DNA of 9,866 nucleotides from a virus (taxonomy: Duplodnaviria; Heunggongvirae; Uroviricota; Caudoviricetes). Shown piece by piece: positions 1-6,000 of this stretch (within the stretch, counting starts at the first letter, position 1; each line of letters starts with the position of its first letter). Made by a program: the position numbers. The stretch lies in IMG/VR virus record IMGVR_UViG_2534681674_000031, positions 1 through 9,866 of that record. One strand, written 5' to 3'.

Positions 1-3000
1 ATGGGCAAAGGTGGCGGCAAGGCGCACACGCCGGTAGAGGCAAAGGACAATCTTAAGTCCACGCAGATGATGAGCGTGATTGATGCGATTGGTGAAGGGC
101 CGATTGAAGGTCCGGTGAAGGGGCTGCAGAGTATCCTGGTGAACAAAACCCCGCTGACGGACACGGACGGTAATCCTGTGATACATGGTGTGACAGCGGT
201 CTGGCGCGCCGGGGAGCAGGAGCAGACACCACCTGAAGGCTTTGAGTCCTCCGGGGCGGAAACCGCACTGGGCGTGGAAGTGACGAAGCAAAGCCGGTGA
301 CGCGCACCATTACGTCCGCGAACATTGACCGCCTGCGGGTCACCTTCGGGGTGCAGTCACTGGTGCAGACCACGTCAAAGGGTGACCGAAACCCGACATC
401 CGTCCGCCTGCTGATTCAGTTACAGCGTAACGGTAACTGGGTGACGGAAAAGGATGTCACCATTAACGGCAAGACCACCTCGCAGTTTCTGGCGTCGGTG
501 ATTCTGGATAATCTGCCTGAGCGGCCCTTTAACATCCGGATGGTCCGGGAGACAGCGGACAGCACCTCGGACCAGCTGCAGAATAAGACGCTCTGGTCGT
601 CATACACCGAAATCATCGATGTGAAACAGTGCTACCCGAACACGGCGATTGTGGGGCTGCAGGTGGATGCGGAGCAGTTTGGCGGTCAGCAGATGACGGT
701 GAACTACCATATCCGCGGTCGCATCATTCAGGTACCGTCAAACTATGACCCGGAAAAACGCACGTACAGCGGCATCTGGGACGGCAGCCTGAAACCGGCA
801 TACAGCAACAACCCGGCCTGGTGCCTGTGGGACATGCTGACTCACCCGCGCTACGGCATGGGAAAACGTCTGGGGGCGGCGGATGTGGACAAGTGGGCGC
901 TGTATGCCATCGGGCAGTACTGCGACCAGACGGTCCCGGATGGTTTCGGGGGCACAGAGCCGCGGATGACCTTTAATGCGTACCTGTCACAACAGCGTAA
1001 GGCGTGGGACGTTCTCAGTGATTTCTGCTCGGCGATGCGCTGTATGCCGGTATGGAACGGCCAGACGCTGACGTTTGTGCAGGACCGTCCGTCAGATGTG
1101 GTGTGGCCCTACACAAACAGTGATGTGGTGGCTGACAATGAAGGTGTGGGATTCCGCTACAGTTTCAGCGCCCTGAAGGACCGCCACACGGCGGTGGAGG
1201 TGAATTACACCGACCCGCAGAACGGCTGGCAGACCTCCACGGAACTGGTGGAAGACCCGGAAGCCATACTGCGCTACGGGCGCAACCTGCTGAAGATGGA
1301 TGCGTTCGGCTGCACCAGTCGCGGTCAGGCCCACCGTGCCGGGCTGTGGGTGATAAAGACCGGACTGCTGGAAACGCAGACGGTGGATTTCACGCTCGGG
1401 TCACAGGGGCTGCGTCACACACCCGGTGACATTATTGAAATCTGTGATAACGACTATGCCGGGACCATGACCGGCGGACGTGTCCTGTCCATCGATGCCG
1501 CCAGCCGCACCCTGACGCTGGACCGTGAGGTGACACTGCCGGAGACCGGTGCCGCCACGGTGAACCTGATTAACGGCAGCGGTAAGCCGGTGAGTGTGGA
1601 CATCACCGCACACCCCGCGCCGGACCGGGTACAGGTCAGCACCCTGCCTGATGGTGTGGAGACATACGGTGTATGGGGACTATCCCTGCCGTCACTGCGC
1701 CGTCGCCTGTTCCGCTGTGTCTCCGTCCGGGAAAACACGGACGGCACCTTTGCCATCACGGCGGTGCAGCACGTACCGGAAAAAGAAGCCATCGTGGATA
1801 ACGGTGCCCGCTTTGAGCGCAGTCAGGCACCCTGAACAGCGTCATCCCTCCGGCAGTGCAGCACCTGACGGTGGAGGTGAGCGCAGCTGACGGCCAGTAT
1901 CTGGCGCAGGCGAAATGGGACACGCCGCGGGTGGTGAAGGGCGTGCGCTTCAGTCTGCGCCTGACCAGTGGAAGCGGTGAGGACAGCCGTCTGGTGACCA
2001 CCGCCATCACCGCGGATACAGAGCACCGTTTCAGCGGTCTGCCGCCGGGGGAATACACCCTGACGGTCAGGGCGATTAACAGTTATGGCCAGCAGGGGGA
2101 ACCGGCCACCACCACGTTCAGGATTAATGCACCTGCGGTACCCGCCACGATTGAGCTGACACCGGGCTATTTTCAGATAACAGCGGTCCCGCGTCTTGCG
2201 GTGTATGACCCGACGGTACAGTTTGAGTTCTGGTTTTCGGAGACAAAAATCGCAGACACATCTCAGGTGGAAACCTCTGCCCGTTATCTGGGGACCGGCA
2301 GTCAGTGGAGTGTATCCGGCCCGCACATTAAGCCCGGGAAGGATTTCTGGTTTTACGTGCGCAGCGTCAACCTGGTGGGGAAATCTGCTTTTGTGGAAGC
2401 CAGTGGCCGGGCCAGCAATGATGCAGAAGGGTATCTGGGGCTGTTTCGGGAAAAAATAGGAAAACTGCATCTGGCTCAGGGGCTGTGGGAGCTGATAGAC
2501 AACAGCCAGCTTGCGGATGAGATGGCGGAGATGAAGACCTCCATCACCGAAACCCGCAATGAAATCACACAGACGGTCAGTAAAACGCTGGAGGACCAGA
2601 GCGCCACCATACAGCAGATACAGCGCGTGCAGAAGGACACAAATGATGACCTTGCTGCACTTTACATGCTGAAGGTACAGAAAACAAAAAATGGCATACC
2701 CTATGTTGCCGGTATTGGAGCGGGGATTGAGGATACTGATGGCCAGCCCCTGAGCAACATACTGCTGCTGGCTGACCGTATTGCGATGATTAACCCGGAG
2801 GACGGCAACACCACGCCGTTATTTGTGGCGCAGGGGAATCAGTTGTTCATGAACGATGTGTTCCTGAAGCGGCTGTTTGCGGTGAGTATCACCTCGTCCG
2901 GCAATCCCCCGACGTTTTCCCTGACGCCGGAAGGGAAGCTGACAGCCAGGAACGCGGATATCAGCGGAGCAATTACCGCGAATACCGGCACGCTCAATAA

Positions 3001-6000
3001 TGTCACCATTAACGAGAACTGTGGCATCAGGGAAAACTGTCCGCAAACCAGATTGAAGGCGACCTCGTTAAAACTGTGGGCAAAGCTTTCCCCCGGGATT
3101 CCCGTGCACCGGAGCGGTGGCCATCAGGGACCATTACCGTCAGGGTTTATGACGATCAGCCGTTTGACCGGCAAATTGTTATTCCGGCGGTGGCATTCAG
3201 CGGCGCTAAACATGAGAGAGAGCATACTGATATTTACTCCTCATGCCGTCTGATAGTGCGGAAAAACGGTGCTGAAATTTATAACCGTACCGCGCTGGAT
3301 AATACGCTGATTTACAGTGGCGTTATTGATATGCCTGCCGGTCACGGTCACATGACGCTGGAGTTTTCGGTGTCAGCATGGCTGGTAAATAACTGGTATC
3401 CCACAGCAAGTATCAGCGATCTGCTGGTTGTGGTGATGAAAAAATCCACAGCAGGTATCAGTATCAGCTGAATTTTATAACCCAGAACGGGCGTCAGAAA
3501 TGACGCCTTTTTTATTGCAGAAAAGCGAGAGGTAATTATGCGTAAACTTTATGCCGCCATTTTGTCCGCAGCCATTTGTCTGGCCGTATCCGGTGCGCCT
3601 GCATGGGCGTCTGAGCAGCAGGCCACGCTGAGCGCGGGGTATCTTCATGCCCGGACGAACGCTCCCGGTAGCGATAATCTTAACGGGATTAACGTGAAAT
3701 ACCGTTATGAATTCACGGACACGCTGGGGCTGGTGACGTCATTCAGCTATGCAGGAGACAGGAATCGCCAGATTACCCGTTACAGCGATACCCGCTGGCA
3801 TGAAGATTCCGTGCGTAACCGCTGGTTCAGCGTAATGGCGGGGCCGTCTGTGCGCGTGAATGAATGGTTCAGCGCGTATGCGATGGCGGGAGTGGCTTAC
3901 AGCCGTGTGTCGACTTTCTCCGGGGATTATCTCCGCGTAACTGACAACAAGGGGAAAACGCACGATGTGCTGACCGGAAGTGATGACGGTCGCCACAGCA
4001 ACACCTCTCTGGCGTGGGGAGCTGGCGTGCAGTTTAACCCGACCGAATCCGTGGCCATTGATATTGCTTATGAAGGCTCCGGCAGTGGCGACTGGCGCAC
4101 TGACGGCTTCATCGTGGGTGTCGGCTATAAATTCTGATTAGCCAGGTAACACAGTGTTATGACAGCCCGCCGGTTCAGGCGGGCTTTTTTGTGGGTTGAA
4201 TATGGCAGTAAAGATTTCAGGTGTACTGAAAGACGGCACAGGAAAACCGGTAGAGAACTGTACCATTCAACTGAAAGCCAGACGGACCAGCAGCACGGTG
4301 GTGGTGAACACGGTGGCCTCTGAAAATCCGGATGAAGCCGGTCGTTACAGCATGGACGTTGAGTACGGTCAGTACAGCGTCATTCTGTTGGTGGAAGGAT
4401 TCCCGCCGTCACATGCCGGGACCATCACCGTGTATGAAGATTCTCAACCGGGGACGCTGAATGATTTTCTCGGTGCCATGTCGGAGGATGACGTCCGGCC
4501 GGAGGCACTGCGCCGTTTTGAACTGATGGTGGAAGAGGTGGCGCGTCACGCTGAGGAGGCGAAGAAGAATGCCGGAGAGGCGGAGACGTCAGCGAGGAAT
4601 GCCGGCATATCAGCCAGTCAGGCAGAAGAGAGCGCTGCAAATGCTGACACTTCAGCAGGGGAGGCATCGGAGTCAGCCCGGCAGGCGGCAGAAAGTGCAG
4701 CCTCAGCAAAGCAGTCAGAGGATGCGTCCTCGTCCTCGGCTTCTGCGGCCGCTCAAAAAGCCAGTGAGTCATCACAAAGTGCAGCAGATGCTGAGTTGTC
4801 AAAAAAGACGGCAGAAAGTGCAGCCGGTAATGCAGCCAGGGATGCAACGACCGCAACAGAAAAAGCCCGGGAGTCAGCAGAAAGCGCACAGTCAGCGGAA
4901 CAAAGCAGGATAGCGGCGGAAGAAGCCGTAAACCGAATCCCCACAGTGGTGGAGCCACCCGGGCCAAAGGGAGAACCGGGGCCCGCGGGTCCTCAGGGGC
5001 CGAAGGGAGATAAAGGAGAGCGTGGCGACACCGGTCCTGTCGGGGCAACCGGTGAACGGGGACCGGCAGGTGATGCTGGTCCGGCAGGCCCGCAGGGGCC
5101 GAAAGGCGACAGGGGAGAGCGGGGAGAGACCGGTCTGACGGGAAATGCAGGTCCACAGGGTCCAAAGGGAGATACCGGTGCGGCAGGCCCGGCAGGCCCA
5201 CAGGGACCGAAAGGAGAAACAGGTGCGGCTGGCCCGGTGGGGGCAACCGGACCTCAGGGACCGAAGGGCGACCCGGGGGAGACACAAATCCGTTTTCGTC
5301 TGGGGCCGGCGAGCATTATTGAGACAAACAGCCATGGCTGGTTCCCGGATACAGATGGTGCGCTCATCACCGGACTGACCTTTCTTGACCCCAAAGATGC
5401 CACACGGGTTCAGGGTTTTTTTCAGCATTTGCAGGTCAGGTTTGGTGACGGGCCGTGGCAGGATGTTAAGGGGCTGGATGAAGTGGGCAGTGATACAGGC
5501 AGAACAGGAGAATGACATGAACATACTAAAAAAACTTATGCAGCGTCTGTGTGGTTGCGGAAAGCATGATGGCCGTGAACACGTGCAGTCGCTTACAGCA
5601 CAACTGCGACTGGGGCCGGCAGACATCCTGGAGTCCGATGAGAATGGTATTATTCCGGAGCAGGACAGGGTAATCACACAGGTGGTGATACTGGATGCAG
5701 ATAAAAAGCAGATACAGTGTGTGGTAAGACCGCTGCAAATCCTGCGTGCTGACGGGAGGTGGGAAAATATTGGCGGGATGAAGTAACCCGACGGATTCAC
5801 AAAAACCGGAGTCCGGCTCCGGTTTTTGTTGCCATGTCAGGGAGATGTTTGTTATGAAGCCCAGAGGAAATATTTATCTGTATGAAGGAATATGGTAATG
5901 CCTGGATTAGTATCATATATATCATCGACTTCATTCGCGAATGAGATGGCGGAAATGCGTCAGCAGGTAATGGAAGGGCAGATTGGAGGATTTCTCCTGG

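Follow-up and report, generated by a model that had tools for sequence, protein, structure and literature searches.

Defective lambdoid prophages with retained lom and effector cargo are already well known in enterohemorrhagic and enteropathogenic Escherichia coli (EHEC and EPEC). In one lambdoid EHEC/EPEC prophage, that of E. coli OkiPb01713 (NZ_AP042682), the gpJ gene (product WP_464351515.1) is followed by lom and then by tail fiber genes, and we found a similar gene in the same arrangement at the start of a 9,866-nt stretch of DNA (referred to here as the window) from IMG/VR virus record IMGVR_UViG_2534681674_000031. Unlike the gene of OkiPb01713, the gpJ gene of the window (here called J) is one base short at three separate positions and contains a private 52-nt mosaic at positions 3024 to 3075. 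We consider it fairly likely that these three gaps are consensus or assembly errors and not mutations, and that gpJ in the strain itself is probably unbroken, with 1157 codons.

The gpJ gene and its three one-base gaps

The window corresponds to nt 2 to 9867 of draft contig AEZJ02000030.1 (GCA_000194215.2; 156,861 bp), which begins 1 nt before the start codon of J. The upstream tail genes (I, K, L, and others) are on other contigs; the break between contigs falls in the tail module, which is repeated. Positions 1 to 3471 of the window are a lambda-type gpJ gene that is read in frames 1, 3, 2, and 1, with the first letter of the window belonging to the ATG codon. The assignment to the gpJ family is backed by full-length collinear similarity to annotated gpJ and by domain order. 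A total of 3,480 nt of the window match annotated gpJ of complete E. coli genomes over a target span of 3,483 nt, the top match among complete genomes being NZ_AP042682 with 99.1% DNA identity, and the precomputed Pfam matches follow one another across the fragments as FNIII-A_GpJ, Phage-tail_3, Ig_J, Ig_J_second, Phage_Tail_Tip, and Ig_GpJ_C, which equals the order found in intact J proteins of 1158 amino acids (aa). Downstream of J lie lom and stf, which is the order expected on that side of J in a tail module; the contig starts too close to J to show the upstream side.

To map the gaps, we aligned the window with intact gpJ genes from complete genomes (NZ_AP042682, NZ_AP027159, and others) by MAFFT and BLAST. 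We found exactly three one-base gaps, located after position 287, after position 1817, and at 3029 to 3031. Insertion of A, C, and A at the three junctions gives a single open reading frame (ORF) of 1157 codons, the product of which is identical to RefSeq gpJ WP_464351515 at 1153 of 1157 residues. The original prediction had described J homology running continuously over four ORFs in frames 1, 3, 2, and 1, with breaks at about 285 to 297, 1817 to 1822, and 3025 to 3033 that were each curable by one added base. The alignment and the restored ORF agree with it in all these respects, and the three gaps fall inside the predicted ranges.

Its description of the sequence around the breaks fared less well. 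The first lost base, placed by the prediction in an "agccgg" context, lies in gaa|gca, exactly at the A/G site that divides AAAG from AAGG alleles of J. The closest alleles (L002 and L089) carry ACGAAAGCAAAG, relative to which the loss is AAA to AA, while most other alleles have AAGG. Junction 2 coincides exactly with the first point of divergence between a 58-nt allele class (TTTGACGGCGACCAGAGCGG) and a 55-nt class. Junction 3 had been described as compatible with a lost base in a short G/C run, but it is no simple homopolymer contraction and sits in a patchwork of two haplotypes. Every base of this 52-nt patch fits one of the two main J haplotypes, with about five changes from one to the other along its length. 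In our J panel (about 200 J-bearing loci, mostly IMG/VR contigs from draft isolate genomes), none of 89 alleles has more than one switch in this interval, and all 89 have 54 nt where the window has 53 nt. No 28-mer of window positions 3031 to 3095 is present in any complete E. coli genome. The runs from which the bases were lost at the three junctions are 3, 2, and about 1 nt long, respectively.

The fragments are collinear and a -1 shift is needed at each break, which is what recoding, for instance by programmed -1 ribosomal frameshifting, would require to read through all three. We rejected this candidate and regard it as next to impossible, since an X XXY YYZ slippery heptamer is absent from all three overlap zones and in thousands of homologs the extra base is there and J is one uninterrupted ORF. 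Moreover, three serial shifts would yield almost no full-length product.

Nature and origin of the gaps

When compared with the panel, J of the window contains novel 21-mers only at 269 to 305, 1799 to 1837, and 3004 to 3083. Its private differences amount to three indels, with zero substitutions and no nonsense codon in 3.47 kb. In a greedy exact cover, blocks 1 to 287, 288 to 1075, 1629 to 1818, and 1819 to 2931 were identical to intact alleles, so that, apart from the gaps, positions 1 to 1075 and 1819 to 2931 equal alleles with an unbroken frame. The closest allele, L089, differs by 3 substitutions over 2,865 nt, and all of these states are known in other alleles. The same alignment also shows two of the window deletions plus a deletion that belongs to L089 itself (A6 to A5, at window positions 2686 to 2691). 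L089 is IMGVR_UViG_2534681674_000027, a draft contig starting inside J, and its own deletion splits its J into open stretches of 895 and 273 codons.

The absence of private substitutions bears directly on whether J decayed in the cell. In that case, J of this potB-adjacent prophage would have been inactivated by three genuine and very recent one-base deletions with the cargo left intact, which would be the ordinary decay of a lambdoid prophage in an attaching-and-effacing (A/E) pathogen E. coli; we put this at only about one chance in four. Natural indels in E. coli arise at about one tenth of the rate of substitutions in mutation-accumulation studies, while overlap-type assembly consensus errors are mostly indels. 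As one frameshift already inactivates J, two more of them before any substitution are improbable (about 0.01, with the first granted as the inactivating one), and for three private indels with zero private substitutions the estimate is about 0.01 or less. The lesions of the window neither come with neutral changes nor are common to relatives, as decay would lead one to expect, and the closest allele is only 3 substitutions away. Indels without substitutions are, in turn, the differences from the nearest allele that an artifact would produce. Real decay of J in a defective prophage, one of the two explanations in the original prediction, is disfavored by three private indels unaccompanied by private substitutions.

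The position of the gaps relative to allelic variation points in the same direction. The three deleted columns are all polymorphic among 45 unique intact full-length alleles (minor allele frequencies [MAF] of 0.09, 0.11, and 0.62). Columns with an MAF of at least 0.05 make up 26% of the alignment, giving a P of about 0.02 for all three deleted columns, which again counts against decay. Moreover, genomes of this type carry several diverged copies of J; in related genomes the 61-mer of junction 1 matches 5 places per genome (median) and up to 11. Because the gaps lie at polymorphic columns and J is multicopy, we infer that the bases were lost where reads or alignments of the J copies disagree, and the assembler, not the cell, is the most likely source of the gaps. 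Either reads from more than one J copy were merged into one consensus, or the reads specific to this copy were too few, and the consensus would then drop one base at three sites where the J alleles disagree. A2G1, for instance, could arise from the merging of A3G1 and A2G2 alleles.

A single event in the cell could leave a similar pattern. If J suffered a double-strand break and a paralogous J served as the repair template for a polymerase that tends to make -1 errors, for instance Pol IV (DinB), the repair would leave several -1 deletions plus the mosaic patch, and it would account for changes that are all -1, clustered in one gene, at allele-variable columns, and free of accompanying substitutions, with junction 3 inside a conversion-like patch. 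We nevertheless consider such a repair very improbable, and equally so that it produced both the deletions and the patch. It is reasoned from the pattern itself, and the stretches of more than 1 kb that hold junctions 1 and 2 each equal a single allele and show no trace of a conversion tract. A consensus error explains the pattern more simply. If the repair were real, the window would preserve the trace, in a natural genome, of mutagenic break repair between paralogous prophage genes.

Broken J copies elsewhere and the flanking sequence

We searched for the gaps in 5,426 complete E. coli genomes, using junction 61-mers and a 71-mer. The deleted string had no exact occurrence among 3,766 matching places for junction 1, 2,866 for junction 2, and 1,598 for junction 3, which means that about 8,200 matching J sites over the three junctions are all without the deletions. 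The deleted junction strings had no match in IMG/VR either, where each intact junction string is found in more than 119 contigs. A circulating pseudogene allele with the same deletions was accordingly rejected. At the protein level, the exact 99-aa product of the first fragment occurs in one contig only of the assembly collection (AEZJ02000030.1), and no exact product of the second or third ORF was found beyond it. An independent assembly of the same strain, sought through the exact products of ORF1 to ORF3, the tail fiber, and a private 90-aa ORF, yielded AEZJ02000030.1 only. That none of the gaps occurs in any other assembly is consistent with an artifact and adds to the points against decay. 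By itself, however, privacy does not tell artifact from mutation, because the intact tail fiber protein of the strain is equally unique and the collection holds no second assembly of the lineage. The 71-aa C-terminal ORF, which is present in 321 blocks, was considered as a sign of a common junction-3 lesion and rejected, as those genomes break elsewhere.

Broken copies of J as such are frequent in draft-derived contigs, a point in favor of an assembly error. The frame is interrupted in 51 of the 195 panel copies (26%; loci L001 to L205), and many of them have 1 to 4 isolated 1-nt indels with 0 to 3 substitutions relative to an intact allele; J of L196, for instance, has 2 deletions and 0 mismatches. 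The draft IMG/VR copies L089, L195, L196, L113, and L204 resemble the window both in this and in that many of their contigs have an end within J. A difference from the window is that several of these drafts have indels outside J too, and therefore the role of repeats alone as the cause of the errors stays inferential. One IMG genome, 2531839449, alone supplies four broken J copies (L113, L183, L195, and L196).

Among the 30 best complete-genome matches, 28 have a single intact gpJ feature. J is also interrupted in some assemblies labelled complete, namely, AP027176.1 (L212; C5 to C4, aligned with window position 3090) and CP073595.1 (L210; T3 to T2, aligned with window position 3146). In both of these, J ends at a TGA that is equal to window positions 3251 to 3253, and the same 71-aa C-terminal ORF is left. 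CP027544 has an IS3 in J. Two further loci (L209, 3403 to 4216, and L218, 55 to 1891) have a Mu-like prophage (Gam, GemA, Mor) in J, with about 270 nt of the J 3' end remaining beside lom. All five (AP027176, CP073595, CP027544, L209, and L218) keep lom, stf, and effector cargo next to the interrupted J, as the window does, but each has a single identified disruption, at other sites, and none has any of the deletions of the window. In NZ_CP022407 (L208, O121:H19 16-9255), J is likewise annotated in four pieces. Whereas in the window only J is hit, this record is also frameshifted in the tape measure gene H, in K (C40 peptidase), and in nleC, which suggests that the "complete" record is an unpolished long-read assembly.

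To compare the sequence next to J, nt 1 to 19,380 of the contig were obtained with the private 90-aa ORF as the handle. Against complete genomes, no frame-breaking indel attributable to the window was found in the 15.9 kb beside J; the one indel there is intergenic and inside a polymorphic patch. The lengths of the contig genes downstream of J match those in complete genomes. The chance that three random indels over 19.4 kb would all land in J is 0.006. Homopolymers of at least 5 nt number 13 inside J and 92 outside (27 of at least 6 nt and 7 of at least 7 nt), and none of the 105 has an indel relative to relatives. The original prediction had offered systematic homopolymer undercalling as one source of the gaps, but the clean runs, the clean 15.9 kb, and losses that sit in short runs do not fit it, and a genome-wide homopolymer error was rejected for this contig.

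Several of these results weigh against a consensus or assembly error in J. The other 15.9 kb are clean even though they include lom, stf, and nleG, which are repeated genes as well, and the 92 homopolymers are clean too, so nothing indicates that the consensus is error-prone in general. J is a clean natural haplotype outside the junctions, and heavy mixing of reads should give more chimeric columns. J frameshifts at other sites also occur in assemblies labelled complete (AP027176 and CP073595).

Part of this evidence can be counted for decay. The error-free flank indicates a consensus that is generally reliable, and J in other genomes has single frameshifts or has been cut by IS3 or a Mu-like prophage. 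One-base deletions in short runs are the commonest spontaneous indels, and defective lambdoid prophages are reportedly the rule in EHEC. On the other side, J is intact (1158 aa) in related prophages that share both the cargo and the insertion site. We still favor a local consensus or assembly error, for which the points are indels only, their privacy, polymorphic columns, the patchwork at junction 3, and the multicopy nature of J together with its place at a draft contig end.

If the gaps are artifacts, J of the window is intact and ordinary, and the database entries for its four "J fragment" proteins are spurious. Real gaps would add one further case to the defective lambdoid prophages that keep lom and type III effector cargo. 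Both surviving explanations, assembly error and decay, are ordinary and of little biological weight. In practice, a multicopy phage tail gene that lies at a draft contig end should be called a pseudogene only if the reads support it.

Neighboring genes and minor features

The genes that follow J are listed in Table 1 together with the J fragments and the junctions. As predicted from the sequence, lom, the tail fiber, and the effector genes have unbroken frames, and six of this set (lom, the tail fiber genes, three nleG genes, espW, and espM2) have exact protein matches in other genomes.

Table 1 Features of the window, with positions in nucleotides from its first letter
Feature	Position	Strand	Description
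J fragment 1 ORF	1-300	+	Frame 1; gpJ codons 1-96, then 3 out-of-frame codons and TGA
Junction 1	286-289	+	Base lost after 287: ACGAA^GCAAAG
J fragment 2	288-1835 (ORF 297-1835)	+	Frame 3; FNIII-A_GpJ and Phage-tail_3 domains
Junction 2	1816-1819	+	One C lost (GAG^CGCAG): GAGCCGCAG to GAGCGCAG, CC to C
J fragment 3	1818-3253 (ORF 1856-3253)	+	Frame 2; Ig_J, Ig_J_second, and Phage_Tail_Tip domains
Junction 3 and patch	3024-3075	+	Base lost at 3029-3031 (CATCA^GGGAAAAC)
J fragment 4	3031-3471 (ORF 3076-3471)	+	Frame 1; Ig_GpJ_C domain
lom	3538-4137		Intact, no frameshift
Tail fiber N	4202-5515		Intact, no frameshift
Tail fiber C	5517-5786		Intact, no frameshift
nleG	5898-6479		Intact, no frameshift
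nleG	6547-7182		Intact, no frameshift
espW	7310-8368	-	Intact, no frameshift
nleG	8443-9093	-	Intact, no frameshift
espM2	9276-9866		Intact, no frameshift

For J fragment 4, gene callers use positions 3256 to 3471 (71 aa). Beyond espM2 (contig nt 9868 to 19380; L206) come chromosomal genes whose Pfam content and order are those of potB, potA, pepT, roxA, phoQ, phoP, purB, and hflD. The J-lom-stf-nleG-espW-espM2 module is located at the same pot site in 9 of the 10 other assemblies listed, and in the remaining one (L009) it adjoins smpB. Two relatives have a broken espW, L009 through a deletion in a T run (window position 7821) and L005 (8034 to 9093) as pieces of 175 and 181 aa.

Two antisense ORFs, at 4425 to 5285 (minus strand, 286 aa) and 4892 to 5800 (minus strand, 302 aa), face the collagen-like (Gly-X-Y) portion of the tail fiber gene and look like by-products of repeat composition; the assembly annotates the 286-aa ORF as a gene. 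The tail fiber repeat region has a 9-nt length polymorphism at 5180. Lastly, the private 90-aa ORF at 9107 to 9379 (minus strand), which the assembly annotates and whose exact product is unique to the contig, overlaps the 5' end of espM2 on the opposite strand, has no Pfam match, and is probably spurious.

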